From a virus: a DNA stretch of 64,000 bases. Shown here piece after piece: positions 9,881-45,774 of the stretch (position 1 is the stretch's first letter; each line of letters begins with the position of its first letter). The notes below the pieces were generated by a model that did no database searches, was not told where the DNA came from, and worked only from the letters and a program-made list of their open reading frames with translations. A program made the position numbers and the translations under genes. The stretch is taken from the IMG/VR virus record IMGVR_UViG_3300024518_003060, positions 7,358 to 71,357 of that record; one strand, written 5' to 3'.

Positions 9881-9883
9881 TTT

Positions 9884-12009: not shown

Positions 12010-12408
12010 TTAATTTTGCTCCTTTTTAGGTCTCCAACCGTTTAACCATCTTTCTTCTCTATCTTCGATCCACTGAATGTAGCAATTAAAGCAGCATTCA
12101 TATTTATTCATGTAGAGATCGTCTCTTATTTTAAAAGAATAAGTCTCACAAGTGGGACAAACTCTTTTAGTTTCTTTAGTAATTAGATTTTTAGGTAGTA
12201 AAAAACCATCTTTCTCAGTTTTCTCACTTTCTTCTTCTCTTTTTCTTTTGTTTTCATAAAACTCTTTTGATTGAATGAGATATTCTTCTTCTTTTTCATC
12301 GTCCCAAAGTGACTTCGGATTCAAGATAGTTTCAGTGCCAAACTTTTTAGCAATGGCTTTTTCTATAGCCGCTATTTTGTTGAGGTCTTTGCTCACTTTA
12401 GGCTTCAA
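12010..12408 (-). CDS. Hypothetical zinc-finger protein
   Basis: CPTC...CCFNC motif near the C-terminus. Confidence 0.7.
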   Translation of the reverse strand: MKPKVSKDLNKIAAIEKAIAKKFGTETILNPKSLWDDEKEEEYLIQSKEFYENKRKREEESEKTEKDGFLLPKNLITKETKRVCPTCETYSFKIRDDLYMNKYECCFNCYIQWIEDREERWLNGWRPKKEQN

Positions 12409-13024
12409 AACTGATGGTTTCCCACTCGCCGTTCGCTACAATCTTTAAGAGGTGGGTATCCTCTTCATAAATCATAAGACCATTTATGGCAGAAGACGCA
12501 GTGGGTTTTGCGCCGCTGAGTACTCTCGGTAACATAAATCCTTGATCGCTAGAAGATAGTTCTAGGATTGCGTCATCGTTTGGTTCGGTTGTTCCAATGC
12601 CAACTTCACCAGTATCGTTGATCGCCATTTTTGGTGTTGCACTGGCATAGCGACCGTTGGTTGATGTTGAAAATACCATATTAACTGCGGAGGCAATATG
12701 AAGGTCGTTGTTGGATGGTGCCGTCGCATGGTAAATGGCAGAGTCAACGAAGCCGCCGTCTTGTCTGAAAATGATAATTGGGTTATCGCCTTCATTGTTG
12801 TTGTCCGTATCGGCTTCTAAAATAAGTGTAGCGTCAGTTGTTGCTGTGCTGATGTGTAGCAAGCCATCAGGAGAGTCTGTACCGATTCCGACTCTATCGT
12901 TGGATGCCGAAACATAAAGAGTACCAGCATCTATATCAACGGCGTCATCGCCGCTTCCTAAATCAATTTCGCCGTCAACTATTAAAGAACCAGTTATATT
13001 TGCGCTGCTGCCATATTCAGACAT
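12398..13024 (-). CDS. Tail fibre-like/virion protein (start reassigned to ATG 13024)
   Basis: Two VGIGT..P fibre motifs; AILELSSSDQGFMLPR; SD GGAGG before ATG 13024. The longer track ORF runs through a terminator. Confidence 0.7.
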   Translation of the reverse strand: MSEYGSSANITGSLIVDGEIDLGSGDDAVDIDAGTLYVSASNDRVGIGTDSPDGLLHISTATTDATLILEADTDNNNEGDNPIIIFRQDGGFVDSAIYHATAPSNNDLHIASAVNMVFSTSTNGRYASATPKMAINDTGEVGIGTTEPNDDAILELSSSDQGFMLPRVLSGAKPTASSAINGLMIYEEDTHLLKIVANGEWETISFEA

Positions 13025-13044
13025 TGTGTCCTCCGGTAATGTAT

Positions 13045-13067
13045 TATTATACCACAAGTTAATTAGG
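13045..13067 (-). promoter_or_regulatory. Putative promoters: CCTAATTA late motif and TGGTATAAT extended -10
   Basis: Minus strand GCCTAATTAACTTGTGGTATAAT between the terminator and the SD. Confidence 0.45.
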
Positions 13068-13072
13068 CTTTT

Positions 13073-13105
13073 AAAAAAAAAGGGAAGGGGTTTGACCCCC
13101 CTCCC
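13073..13105 (-). terminator. Intrinsic terminator after long fibre gene
   Basis: Minus strand GGGAGGGGGGTCAAACCCCTTCCC followed by T9. Confidence 0.88.
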
Positions 13106-13131
13106 AACAAACAATTAGACTAAAAAGTCAA

Positions 13132-15636
13132 TTACTTGTCAAGCTTCTCTTGGAGAGCTTTAATTTGAACAGATTGTTCTTGAATTGCTTTGACGAGAAC
13201 GGAAGTCAAGCGACCGTAATCTACACCAAGTAATCCATCATCATTACCATGAACAGCTTGAGGAATGACTTTCTTAAGATCTTGGGCTAAGAAGCCAAAG
13301 TCTTGAGAACCGTCTTTCTTCCAAGTAAAGTTAACAGCTTTGATAGAATTAACAGTCTTAAGTGCGTTGTTCATTTCAACAACATCAGTCTTAAGTCTTT
13401 CATCCGAATAAGTAACGAAAGCGGCTGCTCTGATTTTGTTCTTGGCGGAAGAGCCATCTTTAACATCAACAGCATAATCAGTAGCGGCGTCACCACCAAA
13501 ACGAGCAGTTTCGGTTCCCGATTGATAAAGAATTAAAGAATTCAAATCAGGTTCGTAAGCAATGTTGTGATTAACCGAGCCAGTACCATTAAGGATAAAG
13601 TCAGCGGCGGCTTGTTGGCCATCATTGTGCTCGAATATACCTGAGCCATCATAAAAAGCCAACTCAGTGCCGGAATTATTTAAAATGGAAAAAGCAGTAT
13701 CGGCGTTGTCGGTGCCCAATGTAAAGCTGAATCCGTCGCCGTCATCAGTACCTTGAGCATCAAAAGACATAAGGTTAGCAGCATTGAAAACAAGGTTAGC
13801 AGCAACATTTGCTGATTCGCCTTGACCTGCGGACAACGTAATATGATTTGCTCCAGTAGACTTAACGCTTTGGGCGCCAGCGCCTTGGACAACAAGTCGT
13901 GTAGCTGCGGAGTTAGTACCAATAGTAACAGCGTCGATAGCTCCACCATTGACATCAGCAGTACCAATGACAGTCGTTCCCGTGAACGTAACATTGCCAT
14001 TGCTAAGAGTCATCAAGTCAGTATCAGCAGCACAACCAATGGTTAAACCATTATCGACAGTAAGAGAGCGACCAGAAAGCGTAGTAGAAGCAGACAGCGC
14101 AGTACCAACATTAACTGTACCGGCGACGGTAAGTGTGTTGGCAGCAAGAGTCATAAGATCAGTATCAGCAGCACAGCCAATTGTGCCCCCAGTATCAGCC
14201 GTAAAAGAACGACCTTTAACTGTAGTAGAAGCAGACATCGCAGTACTAGCGTTAACTGTACCGGCAACGGTAAGCGTGTTGGCAGCAAGAGTCAGCAAGT
14301 CGGTGTCAGCAGCACAACCAATAGTTAAGCCAGTATCAACAGTAATAGAACGAGCAGAAATGCCTTGCGAAGCAGACATCGTTGTGCCAGCAGTAACAAA
14401 TGTTCCACCAGCAAAACTTCCACCAGAAACAGCACCAGAACCAGAAACTGTAGTAGCGTTAGCTGCTCCAGCAACGGTAAGCGTGTTAGCAGTAAGAGTC
14501 ATAAGATCAGCATCTGCAACGATTCCAACGGTTCCGCCGTTGTCAATCATCAATCCCTGGCCAGCAACGCGGCCTGAGCCAGATACTGTAGTGGAATTGG
14601 TGGCACCTGCAATGGTAAGAGTGTTGGCAGTAAGAGTCAGAAGATCAGTATCAGCAGCGCAACCAATAGTTAAGCCAGTATCAACGGTAAGCGAACGAGC
14701 AGAAATGCCTTGCGAAGCAGACATCGTTGTGCCAGCAGTAACAGTTGTGCCGAAAGAACCTGTCCCACCAGAAACACCAGCAGAAGCAGAAAGCGAAGTA
14801 GCGTTAGCTGCTCCAGCAACGGTAAGAGTGTTGGCGGTAAGAGTCAGAAGATCAGTATCAGCAGCGAGGCCGATTGTACCGCCAGTGTCAACAACCAACT
14901 TCATACCAGAAAGCTGGCCTGAACCAGAAACTGTAGTGGAATTGGTGGCACCTGCGACGGTAAGAGTGTTGGCAGTGAGCGTCATAAGATCGGTGTCAGC
15001 AGCACAACCAATTGTGCCACCAGTATCAGCCGTAAAAGAACGACCAGAGACCGTAGTAGAACCAGAAACGCTGCCAAAAGTAGAAGCACCAGTAGAAGTG
15101 ATTGCTCCGCAACCAATTGTACCAATAGTAGCAATATTTTTACTACCATCAAGTACGACGGCTTTACTTGCGGCGGCAGTACCAGCGACAACGCCATCAA
15201 TAAAGCCAGCTTCATCTTCACTTATTGAAGTAGAGCCGATTGTAAGAGTAGCATCATGAACGGTAAGATCGGTACAAAAAATTGACGAGGCGCTCATAAT
15301 AGAGGCTGTGAGTTGTTCAATTCCGTCGATGAATTTTTCAGCGTCAAGAACCAAAGCTTTACTAGCACCCGCTGTACCAATAGTGATACCATTAAGATAA
15401 TCTAATTCAGCCTCAACGAGTACAACGTTGCCAATGGTAAGGCTTGTTTCGCCAGTTATTGAACCGGCAGTTTCAATCCCTGAATTAAAAAAGAATGTGG
15501 TTTCGGTGGCGGTCGAACCGGACAGCCAAAACGCACCACTCATTTCTGGTCCAGCGCCGGTATCGCCAGCAGAACCAGTGTAGTGTTGTAGGTCAACATA
15601 ATCAGAGTATGAAGACACTTGTGAATAAACAGACAT
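13132..15636 (-). CDS. Tail fibre with internal repeats and C-terminal peptidase S74 intramolecular chaperone
   Basis: Thr/Ser/Gly/Ala-rich repeats; YSDERLKTDV...FTWK...GFLAQDL...VDYGRL plus a coiled coil. Confidence 0.88.
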   Translation of the reverse strand: MSVYSQVSSYSDYVDLQHYTGSAGDTGAGPEMSGAFWLSGSTATETTFFFNSGIETAGSITGETSLTIGNVVLVEAELDYLNGITIGTAGASKALVLDAEKFIDGIEQLTASIMSASSIFCTDLTVHDATLTIGSTSISEDEAGFIDGVVAGTAAASKAVVLDGSKNIATIGTIGCGAITSTGASTFGSVSGSTTVSGRSFTADTGGTIGCAADTDLMTLTANTLTVAGATNSTTVSGSGQLSGMKLVVDTGGTIGLAADTDLLTLTANTLTVAGAANATSLSASAGVSGGTGSFGTTVTAGTTMSASQGISARSLTVDTGLTIGCAADTDLLTLTANTLTIAGATNSTTVSGSGRVAGQGLMIDNGGTVGIVADADLMTLTANTLTVAGAANATTVSGSGAVSGGSFAGGTFVTAGTTMSASQGISARSITVDTGLTIGCAADTDLLTLAANTLTVAGTVNASTAMSASTTVKGRSFTADTGGTIGCAADTDLMTLAANTLTVAGTVNVGTALSASTTLSGRSLTVDNGLTIGCAADTDLMTLSNGNVTFTGTTVIGTADVNGGAIDAVTIGTNSAATRLVVQGAGAQSVKSTGANHITLSAGQGESANVAANLVFNAANLMSFDAQGTDDGDGFSFTLGTDNADTAFSILNNSGTELAFYDGSGIFEHNDGQQAAADFILNGTGSVNHNIAYEPDLNSLILYQSGTETARFGGDAATDYAVDVKDGSSAKNKIRAAAFVTYSDERLKTDVVEMNNALKTVNSIKAVNFTWKKDGSQDFGFLAQDLKKVIPQAVHGNDDGLLGVDYGRLTSVLVKAIQEQSVQIKALQEKLDK
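14000..15060. repeat. Seven imperfect repeats (TIGCAADTDLxTL core) inside the fibre gene
   Basis: Core copies at about 14021, 14162, 14303, 14510, 14648, 14855 and 14993; spacings 141, 141, 207, 138, 207, 138. Confidence 0.9.
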
Positions 15637-15687
15637 AGTATATTTCCCCCCATAGGAAATTCCTCTTTTATGAGGAATGTGTAGGGG

Positions 15688-15695
15688 TAATTAGT
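15688..15695 (-). promoter_or_regulatory. Putative late promoter ACTAATTA
   Basis: Recurrent motif about 52 nt upstream of ATG 15636, followed by a hairpin leader. Confidence 0.6.
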
Positions 15696-16490: not shown

Positions 16491-16497
16491 CGCATAA

Positions 16498-17338: not shown

Positions 17339-17339
17339 T

Positions 17340-17786: not shown

Positions 17787-17787
17787 A

Positions 17788-17979: not shown

Positions 17980-17993
17980 AAAAATTCTCCTTT

Positions 17994-19193: not shown

Positions 19194-19222
19194 AAGTGAG
19201 CTTTCCTAGAAAATCTTTAATA

Positions 19223-19230
19223 TAATTAGA
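19223..19230 (-). promoter_or_regulatory. Putative late promoter TCTAATTA
   Basis: Motif overlaps the stop of the upstream gene, 30 nt before ATG 19193. Confidence 0.5.
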
Positions 19231-22200
19231 TTTCTTGAACAAAAGCATACCCATTTTGCTTATCGATTGTTATTTGATTGTCTACGCAATCTTTGAGAGA
19301 ATCGAGGTGGGAGACTAGAATAATTGTTTTAAAGTAGTTTTTAATAATATCAAAGATTGAAACAAGTCCATCCATATTTTCAGCGTCTAATGCTGTTCCT
19401 GGCTCGTCCAAAATAAAAATATCGGACTTTGGCAAGCTTGACACTGAAAGAAGGGCAAGTCTTATTGCCATCGCTGCTATCGTCTTTTCTGCGCCGGAAC
19501 CAAGATCAAGCGGTCTTGGATCATATTTTGGATGCTGAATAAAGATGTTAAGCTTCCTGTTATCGGCCTCAAAAAAGATATTAAAGTCAACAACATTGGC
19601 CAAAATCTTGGCTATTTCAGTATTAATCACGGGAAGCTGCTTTTTGATGATGTCATAAGCAATTCCGTTTGAGTGGGCACAGTGCATAAACAAATCATAA
19701 GCAGTATATTCTTCATTAAGTGCAGAAAGTTCTTCTTTTTGCTCTTTAAGGGAGCGAATTTTCTCTTCAAGCGAGCCATGCTCTTTGTATAATCCCAAGA
19801 GTTTTTGCTGGCACTTGTCACTTTTGGTCTGCTTTGTGTCTATTTGCTCGCTAAGAACTGTAATATGATTTTGAAGTTGTTCTTTATTTTCAATGGCTTC
19901 TTTGTTTAGGTCATATTCTTCTTGTTGTTTATATAGGTCTTCCAACTCTTTTTCAAGTAGCAGTAGATCGTTTTTACACCCTTTTTGCTCTGAATCGAGC
20001 TTGAAGGTGTCTTTTTCGGTGTCATTCTTTTTCTCAAGAACTGCTTCATATTTCTCAAGATAAGAGGCAACCTTCTCTTGGTCAAGATTATCAAGTTCAT
20101 TGTTGGCTTTTATCTGATTTCTGCCAATTTCTTGAACAAGTTGAATTAAGCTGGGTAATTCTTGTTTTGCTGCGGAAGCATCCTTAATAAACTTGCAGCT
20201 TAGAAACTTTTCTCCGCATGGAACTTCATCCAATAAAGTAATCTTTTTTTCTGTTCGTTCTTTGAGTTTTTGAGTGTCATCGAGCTTCTTTTCGGTCTCT
20301 TCTAAAATGACAAGTTTCTCATCAATTTCAGATTTTTTGTTCTTGATGTCCCCTATATCAAAGACACCCAACAAGTCCTCAATTTTATCCAAAACTTCCC
20401 TATTTTCGACAAGTTTTACATCATAATCTTGTGAGGTGTTCTCAAGCTCTTCTTTGCGTTGTTCCTCTTCCTTGATTTTGGTTAAAATGCTGTCGATATT
20501 GATCATCTGAGTTGGGATTTCAGAGAATGTTTTTTCTGATTCTTCCTTTTCTCGAACCAATCCTTGAAGCTCTTTGTCTAATACTTCGCAAGTGGTCTTT
20601 TCTGAGATGGTTTCATTTTCAAGATACATTAACTGCTTTTCAGTTTCATAGATCTCGTCATTAAACTCTCTTCCCTCAAGCCTTTTCAGGGCACCTCTCA
20701 AATCGGTGGCGTCTTCTTTGGCAAGCTTAAACTTTTTATCAAATATCTCAAGATCTAAGAATTTTGCCAGGATTTCCTTTCTTTTGGTTGACCCCTCATT
20801 AATAAACTGTAAAGCTCCAAGTTGAGAACTTAGCGAAGTGATCAAAAAATCCTCTAAGGAACCGAAATGCTTACGAATTATGCTGTCGGTGTCGTTTCGC
20901 GTGAGACCATTTAAACTTGAGGTTTCGCCCGTGTCGCAATCTTCAACGCTGAATTCTACATCAGTTTTTGCTTCAAGAGTCTCTTCGCCTTTGAGCTTTT
21001 TAACGTACTTGTCGGATGTTCTTTCGATGGTGAACTTTTTGTTACCAATTGAAATTACTGCTCTGCCCATACAAGAATCTTTTGTCTGATTAATGATGTT
21101 TAGATTCTTTCTTTCGTTCTTGGATGTACTGTTAAATATAGTATAGAGTAGTCCATCGATTACGCTTGACTTGCCAGAATAGTTTTTACCAAACAAGCCG
21201 ACGACACCACCGAATTTATTAAAATTAATTTTGTTTCCCTCTCCGTAATTAAAGAGATTGTCCCACTCAAAGCTTTCTAGCTTCCAGTTGACATTTCTGT
21301 GTATTTCTTCGTTTTCTTCAATTTGAGAGTTGTACTTCTTGTTGAGTGAGAAGATGCGTTCAAGCATTTTTTCAGTGGGTTGATAGTCTTTAAGGTAATC
21401 TTTGATTAAGCTCTCTTGTACTGCTGAATCTCTTAGATTGTCCGACCTAATTCCATCTACCAAATTTAAGTCGCCGCTGCGTCTTCCTGCGGCATTATTG
21501 AGAAACGTTACGCGCTCTGGTTTGAAGCGATGCTTTGCTGCTTCAATAGCCTTCTTCATGTTATGTAAGGGAATGTTAGTTTTGGAAACTAAACGAACTC
21601 TTGCCCCAAGCGGGACTTCTATCTTTGATGGAATTCGGCCAGTCTTTGTTAAGACAATAGAAATAAAAGGCTTTGGGTTTTCAATCGTAATATGTTTTAC
21701 GGTAAACTTGTCCCTATCCTTGATGTCCCAAATCAAATATCCTTTGTCATTGGTCTCACCAAAGTTCTGTTGGATTGTACTGCCGCAGTATCGTATTCGG
21801 CCTTCTTTATCCAACGATTGGTTCGTTTTGTGTATGTCACCTAAGAAGGCGAAGTCGTGTCCTTCAAAGATTGAAAGTTCGTCTTCTCCGCTTTCCATAA
21901 TCCATCCCAAATCGGTTTGACAATTTGATATAGCTCCGTGATAAACAGCCACGTTAATCCTATCGGAAGTAGAAGGGCGAGACCAATTCCCACGATCAAA
22001 GACACTAAGTACATTAATAGTAATTTCTTTATCAAGGTTCACCTCACCAGACTTTTTAAGAAGATGTAGATTGGGTAGTTTTAGTGCTTTAACAATTGGA
22101 GTTATAGCGTCCTGCCTACTACTATTCTTTAGATTACCGTCATGGTTCCCTAATATTATATAGGTAGGAGCAACCCCCGAAAGACCTGTTAAGAATTCAG

Positions 22201-23306: not shown

Positions 23307-23316
23307 CGTCACTAAT

Positions 23317-23345: not shown

Positions 23346-23352
23346 GTATTAT

Positions 23353-23892: not shown

Positions 23893-23905
23893 TTTTATAA
23901 AATTC

Positions 23906-25126: not shown

Positions 25127-25128
25127 TT

Positions 25129-35147: not shown

Positions 35148-38100
35148 CTCTTCTTGTCCTTATTTGTATCGGCGGCAGCAATAATAGCAAGAGTATCCGA
35201 TAAATTAATACTTAATGGCAATTGTTCTCCGGTCTCAGGAGATATTGGAAGATTAACCCTTCCCATCGAAGGGGCAGACAACTCTTGAGTCTTACCGGCT
35301 CGGGGCGATAGCGGCGGCGTTTCCAGTCGATTGGCCGGTAGTGTGGTTTCGCGGTTCAGTGTGACCGTGGAACGATTGTCTATTTCTGTTCCCGGTGTTA
35401 ATGTCTTTCTAGAAAAAGTGGGAGTTACGGGTGGGGGTACAAATTTTGGAAACGATTTTATTGGGATTGCTTTACCAAAATTAACCTTACAGTCGATTTT
35501 CGCCAATTCTACCAAACTAAAGTAATCGAAGGGCCAGTTGAAACTATAATCTGGAATTGACGTAATTTCTGCGCCTGCTCGTCCAGAAGCAAAGTTAAAT
35601 TTAAATCGCTTATCGTCTCGCGAGTCTGCTGTTTTCGCATAGTAATTAAATGCTCCGCGTTGTTTCGCTTTAAAAACGCTCCATTGGATGTTCTCTGGTA
35701 GAGATTCGAGCATTGACGTGCCGTTCTCTGGAGAAGGTCTGAAAATATTTATCGGAAGACTGGCTCTGCTTTTTTGCATCGATGTGCCAAGATCCGGTGG
35801 TAAATTCTGCCAGATATTTGCCAAATCCTGCTGAGATAGTGTAGCAGAAAACTCAAAAATAAATATGGCGAATGGAGCAATGGTTTTGTTTGTAATGAAA
35901 TCCATCTTCGGTGGCAAAATAAATTTCTTCATTTTCTCTACCATGTTAATAATATCTTGTGATGGCATGTGTTTTGCGCCTGTTGCTTTAACGAACGCCT
36001 CTATACCGGAATTGATGCCGCCTGTCTCTATTATTTTTTCAGCAATATCAATGGTCTTTCTATCAATGGCAAATCTTGTAAAATTAGCTCCTTCTCTGGT
36101 TGGATCGCCTAAAACATGAGGAATGGCGACGATTGCCTCAAAGATTTCTTTTTGTTGGGCAACTTCGCCAAGGCGTACTGGTGTCTTTTTAAAGCCCATT
36201 GCGTCGGCTAAAGATTTAGCACTTGTACTGTCGCTATCTTGAACTTGTATAAAAATGCCCTCGGAACTTGCTGTTGGCAGTGTCCCAAACTGGTGCCACA
36301 TTCCTTGAGCAACCGCTCCAGAACCAATAAGTGGCAGTGAATAAAGCGAATCTTTAAAATTCAAAATAGGAGTTTCCCACTTTGGTTGAATTATCATTTG
36401 ACTTGACTGTCTTGAGGTGTCCACTTCTGTGGGGTTTCCAAAAGCATCAAACTTCACGCCATATTGTTTTGCCACTTGAAGATAGTTTAGGGTTGCTGAG
36501 ATTTCCATTTGTGAATCTGTATAATTACCAGTGACAAAGCTGCCGCCGCTTTTAATTTGGCCTGCGGTACATACCCTACCAAAACTTGAACTTATCAGAG
36601 GCACAATTTCGTCAATTGTAAATTTATCAGTTCTTGATGGAACAAACTTAAGCTCTACTTCCGCATATCCATCATAATACGGCGGCGTGTGTGAAGAATA
36701 AGAAGCAGAAGAGTGTCTCTTCGTGTTACCAGAGTTTGTTATATTGAGCATAACGTCGCGCATTAAATAATCATCTGAATATACAGGCGGCCCGAACGAT
36801 GAACCATAGACATCTATACTGGCTGTTCTCTGATACATAGCAAGATTTGGGGGATTCACAATGTATGAGGCAGAAGTTAGTGAAGCTCTATCACCGAAAG
36901 GAGATCTTGAAAAATCTTTAATTTGTTTGACGCTCGACGCCTTTCCATTGGAAATGGAAACTTTCATAACATATTCTTCGTTTTCCACAAAGTTGCCAAA
37001 GTCGCCGTCGTCGTCCGGTAAAGATGCGATAGTCGCTAATCGACCGGCGGGTTTGAAAAAATCAATTGTGGCAGCTAGAAAGTTATTCATTGCCAATTTG
37101 TATGTGCTCCGCGCTGACCCAAGCAGCGAACAAGTTAAATCAAATTGGGCGACAGGATGGGGTTCTTGGTCATAAATAGTTACCCTGGCCAATTCTTCTT
37201 CTGGCCTTAGTATCGCTTCGAAGGGAACTCTAAAACCAAATGGATTGTGTTCGTCGAGATCAGAGGAGCCAATTCGAGGTATATCTTTCATAAAAGTATT
37301 TTCAGCGACTTGGCCAGCGGCGCCTGAGATTTTCATCGGAGAGGTAAGAATCGGATAGTCTACGGCCATACCAGATTTAATACTGTTGTAAAGAACGCCT
37401 GGGGCAAAAAGACACTGATAGAGGGGCCTTGAGATCATAAGGGCGCCTCGGTCATTTGATACGCCAATTTTGCCCGCCAAAGATCGCCAGTCCTTAAAAT
37501 ATTCATTATAGTCTTCATAAAACATTTTTGCTAACTTGATCGTATGAAGTGCCGGATAAAGATCGTTATACGGTAAGAATTTTAAAATCGCATCGCACTC
37601 GAACTCAAGACTTGTTGCTTTGTTTTCGCTTTTAAGATCTTTTCCTACTATTTTAAAAGCCTTCATAAAATCTGAGTGTAGGTAATTGATAATAAAGCCA
37701 TCTTCTGCCTCGCTATTAAAGATTGCTCCCGTGAGGGAGAGCGAAGCAGTATTTACTGCTAAGAAATTGCCACCTTTTTGATTTACATAATAATCCATAT
37801 GCTCAGAGATTCTAAATTCGGGCAGGATACCGAAACCTTTACCCGCTCTCATGGCCTCGTCGACATAATCATTGTAAGTATCATAAAAGGGGTTTATATT
37901 CTGTGCGTTTCTTGAGGCAAAGGAGCTAGAGATTCCCGCCTCCCATTTGGTATCTCCGACAATATAATATTTAAGAGAGCCGCCCAAGATTGAAGGTTCG
38001 ATGATTCTTCTATTGTAAAGCGGAGCGAGAGGGCCGAATTCACGGGTGATTCCATCAGAATCCACAAACGAGTAAGGCCCAGTAAATTGTGCATAGTCGT

Positions 38101-41100
38101 TTTGCAAAATGCCGTCTTGACCTTTTCCGTTTGTTGCAAGTGATACAGTTGTAGTGTCTCGCGGAGTACTTTGGTTATCCAATACAAAACTAGATGATGT
38201 AAAGCCTAATCTTCCGTCCAAAGGCCAAATGCTGGCCGCTGTTTGTAAATTTATGTTTGGAACATACGGAAGAAAGTGAGTGGAGTCAGTTTTGTTGCCC
38301 TCGTCAGATCTTGTTTGGCGGTCATCTCGCCAAAAGTTATTTCTAAAGGCGGTTCTTTTGCGTGTATCTGCCAAGTAAGCGAACTTTTCTCTTGGATGGA
38401 TTGATTCTTGGACGGTTATATTATTAACTTTGTTAATTGGGTTTGTCTCTTGCGAAATAGACTCATCTGTAATAAGGGTCGCCAATGTATTATAAGCCAA
38501 CTTTCTTTCTGGATAGTTGGTAAGAAACTCAATCGACGGGTGAATGTTCAAATCCAGGCCATTTCCTACCTTCTGGGAGAATTTTACAAAATTGTTGAGA
38601 TAAGATTGTTCGAATACAACTCTTGTTTCTCCGCCTCCACCAGTTGATGTTTGGATATCCAAGTCAAAAGTGATTGGTTTGTGTTTTGATACGACAGCCG
38701 GTTCAATAGATGAAGTTATTCCCCTTCCAAGCTTAACTCGGCCTCTTGCGTCAGCAGGTAAACGGCTTTGAGTAAGGAAGCTGATTCTATTTTGGCTTCT
38801 CAGTTTTCTTGTTATTGGGTGAGCGTCTTTTCTATAGAGTTTCCAGTTTGCTCCGCCCCAAGGGCCTTGTCGATGGAGAAGAAGAGAATTTAGTGTCGGT
38901 GACAGTTGTTCGTCACCAAGATCCCAAAGTTTAATAAAGCCGCCTTCTGCGGTGTCCGTATCCATGGTGCCGTTTGTGGTTCCGTCTGGTGCGCCCCAGT
39001 TTATATAATTAAGAAATGATAAATCAGTAGGATAACCCAAAGTATTAGAACTTGCGGTGATAGGGTCATAAATGTTCGTATTCATTCCTGCGAAGTCTGT
39101 CGGCTGGTAGGCTTTACTTGCGCCATCGGCGTATGCTTTTGTCGCACCAAACGTCTGACTGGACCCATCGCGATATGAAACAAAGTCACTCGAACTTATG
39201 AAGGTAAGATCAGTAGAGGCAAAGCTGGCGTTTGAGAAGTTTCGCTTTTCAAACCCATACAAAGCTGAACCAGTGTAGCCGCTTATAAGGCTTGAGGTAA
39301 TCCAAGCGTATTGTGCGTCCGTTTGCGGTATTTGATGACGAACATAATAGTTGTCATGGGAAGCTGTATTGTTTACAATACCATCTGCGCCATTTTCATC
39401 AGTTGAATATTTAAGTTGGCTTCTCGTGTTTCTGTGATTCTTTTGGTACGAGCCTGTGCTGTCGTAACCTTCTTCGGAAATAGAGCCGCTGCCGCCGGGA
39501 TAGGTTTTGCCCGCTTGTTCATAAGATTCTTCTCTAAACCAGTCACTATAATAGCCAAACTTCAAACAATGATTCGTGAGAAGTTCTTGTAGCGGAAGTC
39601 TAACATCAAGATTTCGCCAAGGCATTGCATTATAGACGCTATATTCTCCAGAATAAACGTCCAAGAAACCTTCGCTCATTGTTGAGGGGTCACCAGGAGC
39701 AGAAAATCTATTTACAAAAATGAACTTATTGCTTCCAGTTAGAGTACGATTCGGTAACTCATATTCGTATGCTCCAGAAAAATAGTAAACAACATTGCTT
39801 GCTGTCAATAAAGTTCCACCAGCGTCTACAAGAAATCTATTGTTTTCGCGGCGGCCTGTAGTGGTGACTATTTCATAATCTTTATAATAGTTGCCAAGGG
39901 CTTGTGAGCCAGTAGAAGACTGAATATTCCTAATGTTTACAGGGCGTTTGGCTGTTTCGTCTCTATAATAGGTTGCCCTTGGCAGATCAGCATTAAAAGT
40001 TAATGCGTCATCGTGTGCTGGATCAAATACAGTAAACTGGCGGAAACTGCTGCTTACTCTGTAACCTTCGGCACGGTCTAGTATATTGTCGCTTCCTGTA
40101 TTAATGTTCTGATGTCGATATTGTTTGCCTCCGACGTGTCTTTCGGTAAATGGACCTTGAGCCGGAATCTCTTTATCATATCCATAAGAGTCGTTATGAA
40201 CGTTTACAATAGAGGAGAACTCGAAATTTCCTCCTCCGGTTGTGCCAGATACGACATTGAAGGGTGCGGCATAAGAACCAACGGAAGAACTCAGATATGA
40301 ATCCTCGGGTTCTCCGTCTACTTCAAGGAAGTCAACGCTTGTATTTACTGTTTTCTTTAAGTCTAAAGCGTTGTCGTCTGTACAAACAAAGCTTGCGCTC
40401 TCTGGATTTCTGATATCTAGTCCCGATTTTTCAGTGAGGAACTGCCTAAGGAGAGGATTTATCAAGTCAAGATTTTTGTTTCTTGTGAAGTTTGTTCCAC
40501 CCTTTAGAACTGGAGTTAGCTCAACCTTATACTTATATGGTCTCGCAAAGTTCCTAATTGCATAAGTTGATCCTTCGTAAGATCCTGCGGCGCCACTTAA
40601 GTTAATAACGGATGCATTATTCAGGTTGTTTTCGACGTCTAAGATCGTTTGTCTGTTTGAGTCGACACTTGTATTGCCGGAACCGGAAACGTCCCTTTCT
40701 GCTCGCTTTTGCCACCAATTACAACTTTCATCTTGAGTCGTTGGAATCGGGGCATGTCCGGTTCTATAATTGTAAAGGCCCTCGCGGATACCCAAAATAT
40801 GTCCTGTCGGGTCAGTTTGCCTAAATTCCATTGTTGGGAACTTGTGATCGTATTTGTTACGGTTAAAAATATATTCTTCAATTATCGGACGAATCAAATT
40901 CTCGGCATCAAGAGTGACGGCAGAAGCCGGGATTAAATTGGCGAGCATTATATTCAAGCCTGAGTCAAGCCATCTGTAATAATCAATGTATTTTTCAACT
41001 TTTGGTGTGTTGGAAACATTTTCAAAGAAAAGTTGTCTCAGTTTGCTTAGGCTTTTGTACTCAGTTCTAAATTCGTTTACGGGATCACCAACCATAGAAC

Positions 41101-44100
41101 CAAAATCAGCGACAGTGCTGAAGAATTTGAGCATTTCTTCGCTGACGGTCTGATACATACTCTTTTCAAAGGTCATCAAATAACTTGTGGGTCGAGTGCT
41201 TCTTGTGAAAGTCACATCGTCAGAATCTCTAATAGTGACCATATCATGAGAATTTATAAATTCAGGTAATTGAGTTCTAGCATTGTAGATACTCTTCTTG
41301 GCAAAGGTTCTTGTGGAGCTTGTGAGGAAATTTTCGCCTCGGGCTGAGTGTTGTCGGTTTAAAACATCGCTGAGAGTTCCAAATCTGTTGTCGGTTGCGC
41401 TTCCGCTTGACAGATCGATTACATCAAATTGGCCTGATGTGTTAGAACTTGACAAATTGGTAAAGTTCCAGTTTAAAGCAAGGGTTTCTATTTTTGGTAC
41501 GCGAACGTGACTACCGCTGGATTGAAACAAATAAGTGTTTTGATAAGGATTTCCAATACCAAAGTTCTCAAAATCAAAATTGTGTCGCTTTACATCATCA
41601 AATGTAAGGGCGGTAAGCCAAAACCTACAATCTGTTATATAAGCGTTCGAGCGTGTTACTAGAGAACCTGTTACGTCATCTCTCAAAGCTCCAACGAAAA
41701 CACGCTTTGGAGTGGTCATAACGGTCTGTCCATAAGCCTTTGAAATACTTGAACTTACAGCAAAACTATTTCTTACATCGTCCAGAACTGAGTTTACACC
41801 GTAAAGTGTCACGTCGTAGTTTAAGCTTCCACTTGAGCCACTGACTAGATCAAACTGGCCATCCTTTGATGGCTTGACTGTAACAGCCAAATTCCATTTG
41901 GTGTTGTCAAAAATATCTTCAAAATATGATGAAGTTATTGTTGGTAAATAACTTGTGCCATCAGTTGGTTCAAGTTTAAAATAGCCTCGTTTATCAAAGT
42001 CGTTGTCTCTTACGATTTTTACGACGAAGCCTGTTCTGTCATTCGCTGGGACTGTCAGATCGTTTTCTGCCGCATTTATATCAACAGAGCGAATACCAAA
42101 GATAGAGGCTTCTTTGTCGGTAACAAAGTCTTGAATTCTATAACTCTTGGTTCTGTCTGCCGAACGCATCATTGAATTGTACTCGCCTTCAGTTCCAATA
42201 ACTGGAAAGATGGCTTGCGATTCAATGGTGAAACCAAAACCACTTGCTTCAAGTCCAGTTGTGGTGGCACTTGCTGTTATATAAGAAGTGGTGTTAGAAT
42301 CTGTTTGATATTGGTAAACCGTTGCACCAGCAGAAGCTGTCAGTGTAAGGTCAACATAATTTTTATTTTCAACGATTGCTTTGTAGTTGTCTCGGAACTC
42401 ATAAACCGCATCAGTAGCGTAGTGACGAATTTTGTAGATTTCGTCGTCTACGCCAAAGCATCTGAGCATGTTGCGGAATGCTTTCTCAGTTCCCTTTGAC
42501 TTGTTGATGTAAACCAAGTTGTTGTAAAGGTTTCTATAGATCGTATTTTTGATGTCATAAAGCTTTTCTTGAAACAATTTGGTGTCGCTTCTGTTGCGAA
42601 AGAACTCAAAGAAAGATGCATCCGAGAATAGATCTGGAATGTAAGGGAATCCCATACCCTGTAACATTCGGTTATTAAAGAAGAAAGGCTTGTCAAAGTT
42701 GCTCAGTGAGCCGCTTGAATAACTAATCTCTTTAAGTTTTGTTAGATTTTCAATTTGGTTTGATACTGTATCGAAATAATTTGAGATTATCTGCGTTAGG
42801 TTTTTAAGAGGCGGCTCAGTTTTTTCATTGTCTGTTTCTGTAATCCAGCCAGGAATACTGTTATAGACTGAATTGGGATTTTGATAATCATGTTCTTTGC
42901 CAATGTTTGTTTTCTTGCCGATTAAATCTTGAACCTCTGGGTGAAAGCTGTAAAGAATTGGATCTTCAAATTCACTTGAAGCTTTACCAGACAAAATAAT
43001 AGCAGAACCAGTAGAACGAGAAGAGGTACTCGAATAGCCCTCCCACAATCCATTTGAAATTCTACCAGAGTAATCTAAAACTGTAGCATCAACAGAAGCT
43101 GTTAGCGTGATTCCCTCATTGAATTTAAAATAGATACCTAAATCTGTGTTTGCGTCATCAGTGTTTGTTCCTCCGCCGACAGGTTCAATATACTGTCTAC
43201 CAATTTGCTGGGCGTTTCGGTTGGTCTTCCAAAACCTCACCTCATCAAGAGAACCAGAAAACTTTGACCAGCCTCGCAAGCCGTAATCATTTGAGGCTAT
43301 TGTATAAGGGGCAGCTAAAGCGCCAACAGTTGCCACGGTTGTGCCGCTAACATATCCTATTGTGTCTCCGCTTTCTGTATAGCGGTCGTTGTGTTTACCA
43401 TCAACAAATAAATCAAGCACAGTATCGCTGCCGCTAGTTTTGGCCGTTACGGCATAATGATGCCACTCGCCATCTGCTATGGAAGCAGTTGTAAGCGTTG
43501 AGGCTCCTAAATACTTATTGAGAATGGTAGAACCAGAACCATATCCAACAAAAAATGCCTGATCTGAACTATTACCGATAGTACCAGTTGTAACCAAAGC
43601 CACGGCAAATCTACCAAAACTGTCGTCGCCTTCCGTGGTCCCAGTGACGTGAGCATCAAAAATGAACTCAAAATATTCTTGATTAGGAGCAGCATAGGCA
43701 TCTTTCTTAAGCCAAAATTCTACTGTATTGCCATCGGTTCCGCCGATTTTTAAGTTACTTTCGCGATTCTTGCTTGTATCATAGACGTTGGCGTAACCGT
43801 CGCTGAAATCTCCAGAAGAGTCGTTAATGTCCTTATTTTTCTTCCTCTTGCTAGTGTTTGGTCCACCTTTGGTCAGGATATATTCGTTGTCGCCTGAAGA
43901 CGGGTAGAAATATGTGCCTTCTGCTCCGGTTGAGGCAGGTGCGATTACGAAGTTTGCAAAACCGTTTGTTCGTGGATATTCTTTGTCGAAAACATAAAGG
44001 TCAATGCCAGACGAACTTAATTCCCATTGGATCTTCTCTTTCAAAGAGCCGTCGTAAGGGTACGTTCTGTAGATTCTCTCGATGGCATCGGTGTAGTATT

Positions 44101-44287
44101 TCTCAGCAGAACCGAATTTGGCGAAGTTTTTTGGTTTGGAATAATCGGTATGAGTGCGAAGCTTGTCCCTTAACTTATAGTAAGTTTCAAGATACTCAGA
44201 AGATTCAATCTCGTCAGCAAGTTTATTAAGAGAACCGCTTGACATTGTTGAAGAATCTAAATTATTAAATAATTCTTTTAAGCTCAT
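35144..44287 (-). CDS. Giant baseplate protein (gp7/P2 gpI-like wedge motif, LamG domains)
   Basis: 3047 aa; TVEFWLK, ADGEWHHYAV, LFVDG, FSGSLDEVRFW (LamG); YINKSKGTEKAFRNMLRCFG wedge-type motif. Confidence 0.75.
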   Translation of the reverse strand: MSLKELFNNLDSSTMSSGSLNKLADEIESSEYLETYYKLRDKLRTHTDYSKPKNFAKFGSAEKYYTDAIERIYRTYPYDGSLKEKIQWELSSSGIDLYVFDKEYPRTNGFANFVIAPASTGAEGTYFYPSSGDNEYILTKGGPNTSKRKKNKDINDSSGDFSDGYANVYDTSKNRESNLKIGGTDGNTVEFWLKKDAYAAPNQEYFEFIFDAHVTGTTEGDDSFGRFAVALVTTGTIGNSSDQAFFVGYGSGSTILNKYLGASTLTTASIADGEWHHYAVTAKTSGSDTVLDLFVDGKHNDRYTESGDTIGYVSGTTVATVGALAAPYTIASNDYGLRGWSKFSGSLDEVRFWKTNRNAQQIGRQYIEPVGGGTNTDDANTDLGIYFKFNEGITLTASVDATVLDYSGRISNGLWEGYSSTSSRSTGSAIILSGKASSEFEDPILYSFHPEVQDLIGKKTNIGKEHDYQNPNSVYNSIPGWITETDNEKTEPPLKNLTQIISNYFDTVSNQIENLTKLKEISYSSGSLSNFDKPFFFNNRMLQGMGFPYIPDLFSDASFFEFFRNRSDTKLFQEKLYDIKNTIYRNLYNNLVYINKSKGTEKAFRNMLRCFGVDDEIYKIRHYATDAVYEFRDNYKAIVENKNYVDLTLTASAGATVYQYQTDSNTTSYITASATTTGLEASGFGFTIESQAIFPVIGTEGEYNSMMRSADRTKSYRIQDFVTDKEASIFGIRSVDINAAENDLTVPANDRTGFVVKIVRDNDFDKRGYFKLEPTDGTSYLPTITSSYFEDIFDNTKWNLAVTVKPSKDGQFDLVSGSSGSLNYDVTLYGVNSVLDDVRNSFAVSSSISKAYGQTVMTTPKRVFVGALRDDVTGSLVTRSNAYITDCRFWLTALTFDDVKRHNFDFENFGIGNPYQNTYLFQSSGSHVRVPKIETLALNWNFTNLSSSNTSGQFDVIDLSSGSATDNRFGTLSDVLNRQHSARGENFLTSSTRTFAKKSIYNARTQLPEFINSHDMVTIRDSDDVTFTRSTRPTSYLMTFEKSMYQTVSEEMLKFFSTVADFGSMVGDPVNEFRTEYKSLSKLRQLFFENVSNTPKVEKYIDYYRWLDSGLNIMLANLIPASAVTLDAENLIRPIIEEYIFNRNKYDHKFPTMEFRQTDPTGHILGIREGLYNYRTGHAPIPTTQDESCNWWQKRAERDVSGSGNTSVDSNRQTILDVENNLNNASVINLSGAAGSYEGSTYAIRNFARPYKYKVELTPVLKGGTNFTRNKNLDLINPLLRQFLTEKSGLDIRNPESASFVCTDDNALDLKKTVNTSVDFLEVDGEPEDSYLSSSVGSYAAPFNVVSGTTGGGNFEFSSIVNVHNDSYGYDKEIPAQGPFTERHVGGKQYRHQNINTGSDNILDRAEGYRVSSSFRQFTVFDPAHDDALTFNADLPRATYYRDETAKRPVNIRNIQSSTGSQALGNYYKDYEIVTTTGRRENNRFLVDAGGTLLTASNVVYYFSGAYEYELPNRTLTGSNKFIFVNRFSAPGDPSTMSEGFLDVYSGEYSVYNAMPWRNLDVRLPLQELLTNHCLKFGYYSDWFREESYEQAGKTYPGGSGSISEEGYDSTGSYQKNHRNTRSQLKYSTDENGADGIVNNTASHDNYYVRHQIPQTDAQYAWITSSLISGYTGSALYGFEKRNFSNASFASTDLTFISSSDFVSYRDGSSQTFGATKAYADGASKAYQPTDFAGMNTNIYDPITASSNTLGYPTDLSFLNYINWGAPDGTTNGTMDTDTAEGGFIKLWDLGDEQLSPTLNSLLLHRQGPWGGANWKLYRKDAHPITRKLRSQNRISFLTQSRLPADARGRVKLGRGITSSIEPAVVSKHKPITFDLDIQTSTGGGGETRVVFEQSYLNNFVKFSQKVGNGLDLNIHPSIEFLTNYPERKLAYNTLATLITDESISQETNPINKVNNITVQESIHPREKFAYLADTRKRTAFRNNFWRDDRQTRSDEGNKTDSTHFLPYVPNINLQTAASIWPLDGRLGFTSSSFVLDNQSTPRDTTTVSLATNGKGQDGILQNDYAQFTGPYSFVDSDGITREFGPLAPLYNRRIIEPSILGGSLKYYIVGDTKWEAGISSSFASRNAQNINPFYDTYNDYVDEAMRAGKGFGILPEFRISEHMDYYVNQKGGNFLAVNTASLSLTGAIFNSEAEDGFIINYLHSDFMKAFKIVGKDLKSENKATSLEFECDAILKFLPYNDLYPALHTIKLAKMFYEDYNEYFKDWRSLAGKIGVSNDRGALMISRPLYQCLFAPGVLYNSIKSGMAVDYPILTSPMKISGAAGQVAENTFMKDIPRIGSSDLDEHNPFGFRVPFEAILRPEEELARVTIYDQEPHPVAQFDLTCSLLGSARSTYKLAMNNFLAATIDFFKPAGRLATIASLPDDDGDFGNFVENEEYVMKVSISNGKASSVKQIKDFSRSPFGDRASLTSASYIVNPPNLAMYQRTASIDVYGSSFGPPVYSDDYLMRDVMLNITNSGNTKRHSSASYSSHTPPYYDGYAEVELKFVPSRTDKFTIDEIVPLISSSFGRVCTAGQIKSGGSFVTGNYTDSQMEISATLNYLQVAKQYGVKFDAFGNPTEVDTSRQSSQMIIQPKWETPILNFKDSLYSLPLIGSGAVAQGMWHQFGTLPTASSEGIFIQVQDSDSTSAKSLADAMGFKKTPVRLGEVAQQKEIFEAIVAIPHVLGDPTREGANFTRFAIDRKTIDIAEKIIETGGINSGIEAFVKATGAKHMPSQDIINMVEKMKKFILPPKMDFITNKTIAPFAIFIFEFSATLSQQDLANIWQNLPPDLGTSMQKSRASLPINIFRPSPENGTSMLESLPENIQWSVFKAKQRGAFNYYAKTADSRDDKRFKFNFASGRAGAEITSIPDYSFNWPFDYFSLVELAKIDCKVNFGKAIPIKSFPKFVPPPVTPTFSRKTLTPGTEIDNRSTVTLNRETTLPANRLETPPLSPRAGKTQELSAPSMGRVNLPISPETGEQLPLSINLSDTLAIIAAADTNKDKKR

Positions 44288-45774
44288 ACTATCCTAAATC
44301 TAAAGTTTTCAGGCTGTTCCACATAGCTTCCATTGATCAAATATGTAAATTTGATTTGATAAGTGAAGCCAGCCTCAAGCATACCCATGTCAAAGTCAAA
44401 GTAACTTCCGCTTACATCATACGATAATCTTGTGTGGTTCGTCGAACCTGTGCCATAATCGGCAACAATCCAATTATCATTGGCACGGACGATTTTGTAA
44501 TATACATTGTCAATTATAGAGGTGTCAATATTTTGAGACGCCACTGTATAATTGTTGGGACTCCAATCTTTCTTACGAGCGAACAGTCTGAACCTAGCAT
44601 TTTCGTTTATAGAGTAGTTCGGTCTCAAGTTCGTAATCTTGGAAATATATCGTTGATCGAAGTTATAATCTTCGCTGTCAAATGTATTTACGTCAACGGC
44701 AGTTCCTGTGTGATATTCAGTACTTGTGCTTCCGCTGTGCCATACATCAAAAATGGTTGTAATGGCCGAGGAAGTATAAGCGAATGAACAGGAATAAATA
44801 CCTGTTTCCACATGAGAAGCAGTCGTGTTTATGTCTAAAGTTGTTACCGTGCCTCCGCCTACTGAAAGTCCAATTTTGGAACCAGTTGGAGCAGTGTTAG
44901 CCAATGTGCCCGAATAAACGCTGACGAGTAAGCCGCCTGTTCCGACTCCCGGTATATCTTTCAGTTGGCCCCTTGAAATATTATATAAGTAAAGCTTCAT
45001 CAGATTGTCAGAAGCTGGAATAAGGGAAGAGCTTAGGTAGAAGCTGCCTCTATTATCTTTTTTGCTGCTGTCCCATCGGGCCTCAATCACTGGTCTCTTA
45101 AAATAATATTGTGAACCTCTCGCGAAGAACTTTTTGGTATAATAAGAGGAGGAAGCGTCTTCGTTACTGCTTGTTAGAAATACGCCTACGCCATAATTTG
45201 TTCTCTGGCCCATATCTACAGCCGTCAAACTATTGGCGCTTGAACTAATCCATTGCTCGACGAGAGGCGAGATGTCAACCTCAAGATTTTCAAAACCAGT
45301 GTCAAAAGATTGGGAGAAAGAGGAAGACAAGTCATCCCAATAATCTCCGCCGCCAGCGGTCCACAGGATTCCGTCGCTGGCTGAGAGCCAGTTTGAAGCG
45401 TCAATGTCAGAATATTCTTCCATATCGAGGCCGTTGCCCTCGTCCCAAGAACGAGAAACTGCTGATGCGACAAGTGTAAAGTTTTTTGGCGTTGTTTGGA
45501 CGTGTTCCGCATCGTACAGTCTCAAATAAAAGGATACGCTGCCAGAAGCAGGTATAGTTCCAGCCGTTCTGTCTGTGGAAATTGTGTCTGTATTAAATTG
45601 GACCAAGAGTCTTGAAAACTCAGAGGAAGAAGTATTTGCTTGGGCGTAGATAGAAAAGATTTCCATCACATCAGATTGACCCATGTTACCACTGACGCCT
45701 CTTGTATCCAAGTTTGCCTTAAAAGCATTCGTAATGGTGTTATCTTTTGTCGCGTAATACTTTTTAATGGCCAT
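44284..45774 (-). CDS. Baseplate-associated structural protein
   Basis: 496 aa, Ser/Thr/Gly-rich; SRLLVQF, SRSWDEGNG; coupled to the gp6-like gene. Confidence 0.65.
   Translation of the reverse strand: MAIKKYYATKDNTITNAFKANLDTRGVSGNMGQSDVMEIFSIYAQANTSSSEFSRLLVQFNTDTISTDRTAGTIPASGSVSFYLRLYDAEHVQTTPKNFTLVASAVSRSWDEGNGLDMEEYSDIDASNWLSASDGILWTAGGGDYWDDLSSSFSQSFDTGFENLEVDISPLVEQWISSSANSLTAVDMGQRTNYGVGVFLTSSNEDASSSYYTKKFFARGSQYYFKRPVIEARWDSSKKDNRGSFYLSSSLIPASDNLMKLYLYNISRGQLKDIPGVGTGGLLVSVYSGTLANTAPTGSKIGLSVGGGTVTTLDINTTASHVETGIYSCSFAYTSSAITTIFDVWHSGSTSTEYHTGTAVDVNTFDSEDYNFDQRYISKITNLRPNYSINENARFRLFARKKDWSPNNYTVASQNIDTSIIDNVYYKIVRANDNWIVADYGTGSTNHTRLSYDVSGSYFDFDMGMLEAGFTYQIKFTYLINGSYVEQPENFRFRIV

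Follow-up and report, generated by a model that had tools for sequence, protein, structure and literature searches.

A lineage-specific Ser/Thr-Gly/Ala-Ser/Thr tripeptide in outer tail proteins of Far-T4 myoviruses, a possible acceptor motif for O-glycosylation

The tail and baseplate genes in a 64,000-nucleotide stretch of viral DNA (positions 7,358 to 71,357 of IMG/VR record IMGVR_UViG_3300024518_003060; hereafter the window) raise the question of why one short tripeptide, [S/T]-[G/A/S]-[S/T], recurs in structural proteins that are otherwise unrelated. The initial annotation of the window had noticed this tripeptide between positions 12398 and 45774 and had taken it for a sequon by which a phage glycosyltransferase (GT) coats exposed virion surfaces with sugars. 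The analysis described here finds the motif excess to be a real, lineage-specific and previously undescribed sequence feature of Far-T4 myoviruses, for which a link to a conserved GT gene of the same lineage is plausible. That the tripeptide serves as an O-glycosylation acceptor motif is the leading reading of these sequences, one we hold tentatively and place just short of probable.

Overlapping matches to the motif were counted in 44 translated open reading frames (ORFs) of the window, all of whose genes lie on the minus strand, and each ORF was compared with 1000 composition-preserving global shuffles. The tripeptide is over-represented in six of the 44: a 3047-aa giant baseplate-region protein (35144-44287; 59 sites vs 22.7 expected, z 7.8), a 406-aa protein with no PHROG or Pfam match (23906-25126; 17 vs 5.2, z 5.5) that has the highest site density, 4.2 per 100 aa, a 496-aa virion structural protein encoded directly downstream of the gp6-like gene (44284-45774; 18 vs 6.4, z 5.0), a 346-aa protein (34107-35147; 4 vs 0.7, p 0.004) whose four sites are packed within residues 145-168 in the cluster ITGSILSASMIGVSGSG...KSGS, a 238-aa tail-fibre-like protein (12398-13114; 7 vs 2.2, p 0.006; PHROG tail-fibre families, E 3e-8) and a 361-aa paralogue of the 406-aa protein with 22% identity to it (25129-26214; 10 vs 4.2, p 0.011). 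Hand counts in the initial annotation had come close to these values, with about 16 and 15 sites in the 496- and 406-aa proteins and 'dozens' in the 3047-aa protein, and its low counts were likewise near those computed for the Mre11-Rad50 protein (1 site vs 2.4 expected; about 1 by hand), the terminase (2 vs 1.7; about 2) and a 2032-aa protein (8 vs 6.2; about 6-7). There is also no excess in a 1219-aa protein (5 vs 6.2) or in the capsid protein (8 vs 5.4). The gp6-like (45774-47573) and gp25-like (47578-47988) wedge genes, identified by both PHROG and Pfam, anchor the baseplate module and serve as internal negative controls.

The shuffle comparison had been proposed together with the initial annotation, which counted an 834-aa tail fibre among the carriers (13132-15636; PHROG tail fibre, with a C-terminal Peptidase_S74 chaperone, PF13884). 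The excess in six ORFs upholds the proposal in general, but the fibre, half of which is Ser/Thr/Gly/Ala, shows nothing beyond its composition (20 vs 17.9, p 0.34). The claimed concentration in outer structural proteins stands as a real excess in virion proteins and fails for this fibre and for several other presumably outer proteins. Among the neighbouring genes, the giant ORFs 48045-54143 (2032 aa) and 35144-44287 (3047 aa) flank the gp25/gp6 genes and only the latter has an excess, while a 955-aa tail-module protein with no PHROG or Pfam match (27193-30060) is the opposite of its neighbours, with 0 sites vs 3.6 expected.

The excess goes beyond composition, local composition and dipeptide content. 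With the middle residue restricted to Gly or Ala, the 3047-aa protein has 39 [ST][GA][ST] vs 13.3 expected, the permuted forms [GA][ST][ST] and [ST][ST][GA] reaching 22 and 23, and the 406-aa protein has 10 vs 2.4 with permuted forms close to expectation. SSS is likewise enriched (z 3.5-3.8), in part as a homopolymer effect, and [ST]x[ST] with a larger middle residue shows no enrichment. Local low complexity is ruled out as the cause, z staying at 4-6 in 10- and 20-aa block shuffles; so is a DNA-level cause, the 72 sites corresponding to 62 distinct nonamers with ordinary codon use, and self-BLAST finds no internal repeats, even in the 3047-aa protein. Writing H for Ser/Thr and g for Gly/Ala, and taking a first-order Markov model as expectation, H-g-H stands at 1.51-1.85 times expectation in the enriched sets, at 1.02 in the non-enriched structural proteins and at 0.63 in the gp6 family, while the one-sided forms x-g-H and H-g-x fall below it (0.48-0.81). 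This rules out a plain Gly-Ser/Thr turn preference and, with the complete form above and the one-sided forms below expectation, indicates a true, cooperative tripeptide unit in which both hydroxyls are needed. The sites have hydrophobic flanks at -1 and +3 and their third position favours Ser; phi-[S/T]-[G>A(>S)]-[S>T]-phi, where phi is hydrophobic, is a selected protein-level unit of outer tail proteins of Far-T4 myoviruses. The carriers themselves show a single homology in an all-against-all BLAST, that of the 406-aa/361-aa pair (E 1e-11), and hidden homology of the 496-aa and 406-aa families is rejected by hhalign (probability 0.2%). A shared excess in unrelated families suggests that some factor works in trans.

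This marine phage is assigned by its genes to the Far-T4 group, as defined in the accessible part of the paper of Roux et al. (PMC4360716), since it combines an RM378-type capsid match with T4-type portal, terminase and gp25/gp6 genes. Most of a 71,357-bp viral contig lies in the window, whose position 64000 is also where the contig ends. Its T4-type (gp23) major capsid protein (1528-3327; Pfam Gp23, PHROGs) has its best matches, among 50,697 phage records, in the uncultured huge phage LR756508 (52%), Flavobacterium phage immuto (46%), Microcystis phage Mel-JY01 (46%) and Rhodothermus phage RM378 (43%), and these four, together with the near-complete genomes G001 (185 kb) and G002 (176 kb), were used as relatives. 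Pfam and PHROGs also identify the portal (Portal_T4), the large terminase (Terminase_6N), a prohead protease, a primase, the gp25-like (GPW_gp25) and gp6-like wedge proteins and two fibres that carry S74 chaperone domains; for most of the tail and baseplate ORFs of the window neither database gives a family.

Comparison with other phages shows that the signal is restricted to this lineage. With H-g-H expectations computed per protein and added up across every ORF of 150 aa or more, the Markov ratio lies between 1.25 and 1.34 in six of the seven Far-T4 genomes (the contig itself 1.25, G001 1.30, G002 1.34, immuto 1.28, RM378 1.25 and Mel-JY01 1.33; LR756508 has 1.12) vs 0.89-1.10 in all seven controls (T4 0.89, phiKZ 0.99, Syn9 1.02, LR756511 1.04, Sf-FS3 1.06, HTVC008M 1.06 and T5 1.10). 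The raw ratios of 1.3-1.46 seen in marine cyano- and pelagimyoviruses are due to their dipeptide content. In T4, 25 structural proteins together have 62 sites vs 58.6 (whole-genome ratio 0.94), and the baseplate, fibre and Ig-like Hoc proteins show no excess. A general trait of T4-type or beta-rich tail proteins is thus ruled out by T4, T5, phiKZ, Syn9, HTVC008M, Sf-FS3 and LR756511. The enriched ORFs of immuto, Mel-JY01 and RM378, among them an immuto tail spike with 56 sites vs 20.8, are in part homologous to the carriers of the window and in part not. Enriched proteins of immuto are encoded at 85576-89373, 97614-100775 and 135031-136149 of its genome. The Mel-JY01 ratio was computed after two low-complexity ORFs whose permuted controls are equally high had been dropped. 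These two ORFs (635-3049, 805 aa, and 9444-9983, 180 aa, of the Mel-JY01 record; loci L161) encode extreme Ser/Thr/Gly/Ala low-complexity proteins, possibly mucin-like fibres; the larger has 114 [ST][GA][ST] vs 34, with permuted forms as high. Relatives also have still larger versions of the giant ORFs of the window, with 3718 aa in G001.

Within families of homologues the excess is conserved. For the 496-aa protein, 439 relatives were found in IMG/VR and 80 loci kept; two sequences shorter than 400 aa were dropped, and all 78 full-length homologues used show the excess, with 911 [ST][GA][ST] in total vs 263 expected; the permuted controls reach 327 and 308. Where present, the excess ranges from 3- to 4.4-fold among families, with 1554 vs 508 in the 3047-aa family (58 members), 212 vs 48.2 in the 406-aa family (24 members), 166 vs 55.5 in the 361-aa family and 29 vs 9.4 in the 346-aa family, and it is absent in the gp6-like (0.76; 87 vs 114.6), gp25-like (0.42) and 306-aa families. 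The paralogue family of the 406-aa and 361-aa proteins is present in 4-5 copies in Mel-JY01, and paralogues are also found in immuto. Invariant or near-invariant sites of the 496-aa protein are S77-G-S, S248-S-S, Y-S288-G-S/T, T356-G-S/T and G-T442-G-S; in the 406-aa family LLTGS246 is kept in 24/24 homologues and FISGS199 in 23/24, while the clustered sites of the 346-aa protein are poorly kept (0-3 of 12 homologues). Conservation is somewhat higher for Ser/Thr in the motif than for Ser/Thr elsewhere (0.68 vs 0.57, p 0.03). A separate observation concerns the family of the RuvC-like resolvase (23353-23892), whose 24 sequences contain 0 [ST][GA][ST] vs 9.4 expected and 47 [ST][ST][GA], the latter probably one conserved motif inherited throughout the family.

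Where the sites lie was followed in predicted structures and domain matches. The AlphaFold2 model of the 496-aa protein (57 sequences; predicted local distance difference test, pLDDT, 86.1; predicted template modelling score, pTM, 0.83) is all-beta, with an N-terminal part resembling a carbohydrate-binding module (CBM) or jelly roll followed by FN3/Ig-like sandwiches; Foldseek matches it to the CBM 8wab (TMt 0.68), to MG/Ig-type structures and to FN3-type virion proteins in BFVD. The 54 motif residues of this model are distributed over coil (35), strand (15) and helix (4). The model of the 406-aa protein was too poor for use (pLDDT 59.6). In the 3047-aa protein a LamG_3 (concanavalin-like) domain occupies aa 182-362 (PF13385, E 6.7e-10) and contains seven of the 59 sites; comparison of its sequence with solved structures gave nothing usable. 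The 1148-aa tail sheath, encoded on the same contig just outside the window, has all of its 24 sites within the insertion at aa 129-797, of which aa 129-340 carry 17 sites vs 8.0 expected, and its Pfam core (853-1140) has 0 sites, with just 1.4 expected.

A conserved gene of the lineage encodes a GT of the GT4 type. In both G001 and G002 a sugar island is flanked by PhoH and the baseplate module, all on one strand, and across the relatives the island is found between PhoH or a nuclease and that module, again on the same strand. In G001 it comprises a GT4 (423 aa; GT4a), a GT4-like protein (421 aa; GT4b), a GT2, a GT10-like protein, DegT, an FdtA-like protein, an epimerase and a methyltransferase; G002 has the same GT4 pair followed by a different gene set, and the annotation of immuto gives the same layout with two GTs, more GTs, transaminases, a 'pilin glycosylation protein' and an epimerase. 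GT4a heads a variable island and is usually paired with the adjacent paralogue GT4b (G001, L113:250-2784; G002, L124:4939-8005; immuto, 49128-51883). GT4a was recognized in 7/7 large relatives at 55-63% identity and GT4b in the six relatives aligned at 44-50%; the two are distant paralogues that both keep the E-x7-E motif. GT4a is also present in immuto, RM378, LR756508 and Mel-JY01, in the last split into two ORFs. It matches only seven of the 50,697 phage records, all of them Far-T4 and the closest capsid-protein relatives of the window, and was not found in T4, T5, phiKZ, Syn9, HTVC008M or Sf-FS3; LR756511 is likewise outside the seven matching records. GT4a, usually with GT4b, is a signature of the Far-T4 lineage. 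In the PDB it matches generic GT4 enzymes only, the chlorovirus protein B736L among them, and GT4b has no match there.

The acceptor of these enzymes may be narrowed by several observations. The GT4a-carrying lineage infects Rhodothermus, Flavobacterium and Microcystis, and the retention of GT4a across hosts of three phyla argues for a phage-encoded acceptor. In immuto fdPreQ1 replaces dG in the DNA, and the accessible part of the article reporting it does not mention glycosyl (PMC10516641), which within the scope of that text makes DNA unlikely as the acceptor. No initiating phosphoglycosyltransferase, flippase, polymerase or oligosaccharyltransferase family was seen among 184 ORFs of G001 and G002, in a scan that passed over short, very long and border-crossing ORFs, and no thymidylate-synthase-type match turned up there.

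The window itself carries genes for nucleotide-sugar supply. The cluster reported in the initial annotation at 59214-64000 is confirmed by Pfam and NCBIfam and consists of a HAD-like phosphatase (59214-59516; Pfam), a GDP-mannose 4,6-dehydratase (GMD; 59506-60504; Pfam, and NCBIfam gmd at 444 bits, above the cut-off of 415), a GDP-fucose-synthase-like epimerase/reductase (60501-61445; Pfam, with Fcl at 218.8 bits, below the cut-off of 500), a sugar C-methyltransferase (61446-62705; Pfam), a NeuB-family nonulosonic-acid synthase (62708-63529; PF03102, E 4e-63; under the NCBIfam cut-offs for NeuB_NnaB at 201.9 bits and PseI at 146.8 bits) and the C-terminal part of a NeuA/PseF-like cytidylyltransferase (63510-64000), all on the minus strand, the last having lost its 5' end at the contig end. 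As had been stated, there is no GT in the window, nor is there one in the whole 71,357-bp contig. The suggestion to look beyond position 64000 proved productive, since relatives syntenic with the window have GTs just past the point where the contig stops. In IMG/VR, NeuB yielded 135 relatives; of the 80 loci retained, 14 have GT4a and GT4b both within 10 kb. The best syntenic locus, L248, runs through GT4a, GT4b, an unknown gene, GT2, GT11, a further unknown gene, a DegT fragment, a radical-SAM/B12 gene and a GT10-like gene, and continues with PF01973 (MptE-like), CTP_transf_3 (NeuA), NeuB, HAD, the C-methyltransferase and the epimerase, with GMD further on. The NeuA-like fragment of the window aligns over 160 aa, at 54% identity, with residues 55-214 of the CTP_transf_3 protein (214 aa) encoded at this locus, and from the gene order of L248 the window stops about 8-10 kb short of the GTs.

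A PF01973 gene lies directly upstream of NeuA in 6 of the 80 NeuB loci, among them the four whose NeuB is most similar. The L248 protein reaches 47.8 bits against a cut-off of 34.6, over profile positions 126-170 only; in Atlas it falls within viral PF01973 clusters, which count WaaZ-type Kdo transferases among their structural kin, and it has no PDB or NCBIfam match. It is a candidate ulosonic-acid transferase, with either a glycan or a protein as possible acceptor. Between the GT11 and GT10-like genes of the same locus (L248:5609-7621) is a 671-aa radical-SAM/B12-binding enzyme which, with the C-methyltransferase of the window, suggests unusual methylated or otherwise tailored sugars.

If the tripeptide is indeed an acceptor motif, it would follow a logic like that of the N-X-S/T sequon, in which acceptor i and the hydroxyl at i+2 share the same face. 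The likeness is one of analogy only, since the linkage in Far-T4 would be to oxygen and the residue between the two hydroxyls, on one face of an extended segment, would have to be small. Within beta-sandwich domains of the sheath insertion, of baseplate-periphery proteins and of small fibre-like proteins, the sites would occupy loops and the edges of strands. GT4a, usually with GT4b, would act in the cytoplasm on virion proteins that are folding or already folded and add the first sugar; the GTs and nucleotide-sugar enzymes that belong to the same island and vary between strains would then lengthen the glycan, which in this phage may draw on a GDP-6-deoxyhexose, possibly C-methylated, and a CMP-nonulosonic acid, and the tail would finally be coated with it. 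We infer here that the GT4 enzymes act on proteins, that they read the motif and that any sugar is attached. Extended to a code for the whole lineage, with a true O-sequon read by the GT4 pair, a variable island extending the glycan, and sheath, baseplate rim and small fibres coated, the proposal is possible and somewhat on the doubtful side; the coat may in that case be specified by a protein motif that is fixed and a gene cassette that can be swapped, acting together. The initial interpretation thus survives in part, with its excess in virion proteins, its sugar genes and GTs in syntenic relatives, and without its fibre.

A number of results weigh against an acceptor role. No excess is found in several proteins that are presumably outer ones, namely the fibres of 834 and 264 aa, the proteins of 955 and 1219 aa and the major capsid protein, and non-target proteins avoid the motif no more than they do in control phages. 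Taken singly, few Far-T4 ORFs beat the strict Markov null: of the 427 with at least 300 aa, only 7 reach p<0.01 (controls 0/458). LR756508 carries GT4a and has a weak signal, and RM378 has the signal while GT4b was not found there at 1e-8. The co-occurrence with sugar and GT clusters that had been put forward as a check was seen, in that excess and GT4a are found together only in Far-T4 among the tested genomes; motif and GT4 nevertheless co-occur in one clade, which makes this a single evolutionary event and not independent replication. In the model of the 496-aa protein, 15 of 18 site centres are no more than two residues from a strand boundary, and so are 72% of all residues, so strand-edge location was dropped as a distinctive trait.

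A further objection is that the sites are largely fixed by position, some of them invariantly: among 67 distinct homologues of the 496-aa protein, 886 of 1105 motif instances fall in 25 alignment columns. With most sites so placed, a purely structural motif becomes nearly as likely, as it makes the same prediction. The tripeptide would then be a strand-edge, turn or bulge device of beta-sandwich domains in Far-T4 tail proteins, with the small residue facing the core or in a turn and the hydroxyls capping the backbone or facing solvent, and the sugar island would serve another purpose, for example host-envelope remodelling. We consider this quite possible, if short of probable. Once conserved columns are masked no excess is left in the best-aligned families (496-aa 0.90, 361-aa 1.05), as a structural device would have it; it stays in the 406-aa (2.3) and giant (2.0) families, whose alignments are poorer. 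The identity of S versus T at the motif is as fixed as in other conserved S/T columns, some third positions swap S with N or G as turn positions do, the hydrophobic flanks are those of amphipathic strands and the enriched proteins are all-beta. Substitution at the middle position is A/C at one site, yet G only or A/Q/K at others, and this variation argues against any single structural environment. S-to-T exchangeability was also considered as a sign of selection for a hydroxyl only and proved not to be discriminating. The partial homology between the enriched families of immuto, Mel-JY01 and RM378 and those of the window means that part of the apparent replication is shared ancestry. However, families unrelated by BLAST or hhalign have an equal excess within one phage lineage only, the T4 baseplate, fibre and Ig-like Hoc proteins lack it, FN3-rich cyanophage giants are only at Markov expectation, and the one-sided G-[ST] and [ST]-G forms are not enriched.

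It is improbable that the motif is read by something other than a GT, whether as the target of another Ser/Thr modification (phosphorylation, acylation) or as a surface that binds host polysaccharide or adjacent subunits. A pair of hydroxyls flanking a small residue would suit any enzyme or ligand reading an extended segment, carbohydrate-binding folds of CBM-like and LamG-like type occur among the carriers, and one relative has a weak kinase-like match below the Pfam cut-off; yet the G001 and G002 ORF scans show no conserved kinase or acyltransferase, the sites are scattered over whole proteins and do not form one patch, and the only lineage-specific enzyme co-occurring with the motif is GT4a, usually with GT4b adjacent. 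Chance, a composition artefact or a motif chosen post hoc is very improbable and already largely refuted, for although the motif was picked after the sequence had been read, the high count of the fibre is purely compositional and SSS runs inflate the [GAS] version, z is 5-8 in global and 4-6 in 10-aa local shuffles, and the signal recurs in immuto, RM378, Mel-JY01, G001 and G002, genomes outside the motif choice, and is absent in seven control phages.

O-glycosylation as the leading reading can be set beside known systems. Virion O-glycosylation in mycobacteriophages is said to have been described by Freeman and colleagues in Cell Host Microbe in 2023. There phage GTs glycosylate the virion on C-terminal extensions of the capsid and tail-tube subunits, according to the accessible part of another article (PMC12619734). 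Phage-encoded GTs, here in relatives, and sugars shown or proposed on virion structural proteins are common to both cases; in Far-T4, by contrast, a defined tripeptide dispersed over tail and baseplate proteins with folded beta-sandwiches provides the candidate sites, and the capsid is not enriched. Flagellin glycosylation islands provide nonulosonic acids through a NeuB/PseI-type synthase, a CMP-transferase and a Maf transferase (PF01973), and modify many Ser/Thr sites on exposed parts of a structural protein, which is a likeness to the many Far-T4 candidate sites, in so far as these may be exposed too. The window shares with them a NeuB-family synthase and a NeuA/PseF-like cytidylyltransferase, with PF01973 beside NeuA in relatives; the window itself is without a PF01973 gene, however, and the PF01973 kin include WaaZ-type Kdo transferases acting on glycans. 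We know of no tripeptide sequon for flagellin glycosylation sites.

In serine-rich-repeat adhesins the GT4 pair GtfA/GtfB acts on acceptor serines separated by a small residue (S-A/V/T-S), GtfB being non-catalytic and the serine-rich-repeat regions being disordered low-complexity repeats. Far-T4 phages also have two adjacent GT4-fold paralogues, but both keep E-x7-E and the carriers are folded sandwiches; the match to an SdgA-type model was faint, with 22.3 bits where the cut-off is 800. Autotransporter heptosyltransferases (AIDA-I Aah, TibC) are cytoplasmic enzymes that decorate many serines of a folded beta-rich surface protein at a strand-loop-strand element; they differ from the Far-T4 proposal in enzyme family and in sugar, and no homologue was seen. 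A literature search, most subscription journals lying outside its coverage and supplements being excluded, found neither virion glycosylation in Far-T4 phages nor this tripeptide described, and the accessible part of the Far-T4 paper (PMC4360716) never uses the term 'glycosyl'.

If the acceptor reading is right, the tripeptide would be the first short sequence rule for phage-particle O-glycosylation, and abundant, mostly uncultured marine and freshwater myoviruses would sugar-coat their tails from their own gene island, with a bearing on host recognition, on resistance to proteases and grazing and on stickiness to organic matter. The 'auxiliary' sugar genes of viromes would in that case be virion-building and not host-remodelling. 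Cultured members for direct testing exist in immuto, RM378 and Mel-JY01. Were the motif purely structural, it would still be an unusual, lineage-specific cooperative tripeptide common to unrelated families, and the GT4 enzymes would be left without a substrate assignment.

Some further genes of the phage and its relatives are worth recording. The Mre11 (SbcD-like) and Rad50 (SbcC-like) proteins are fused in a single 1052-aa ORF (19226-22384), with PHROG 100 matching aa 1-265 and PHROG 77 matching aa 181-1046. A ClpX-type AAA+ unfoldase with zf-C4_ClpX and AAA domains begins the window (1-681, continuing to contig 6761-8038; locus L371) and measures 425 aa on the contig. Clp protease genes are present in G001 (two) and G002, a Cpn60 chaperonin in both and an FKBP isomerase in G001, which with ClpX make up a sizeable proteostasis set by phage standards. 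Adjoining the ClpX-like gene on the contig, just upstream of the window, a 94-aa ORF (L371:6338-6622) contains tandem EPVA repeats (AEPVAEPVAEPVA...).

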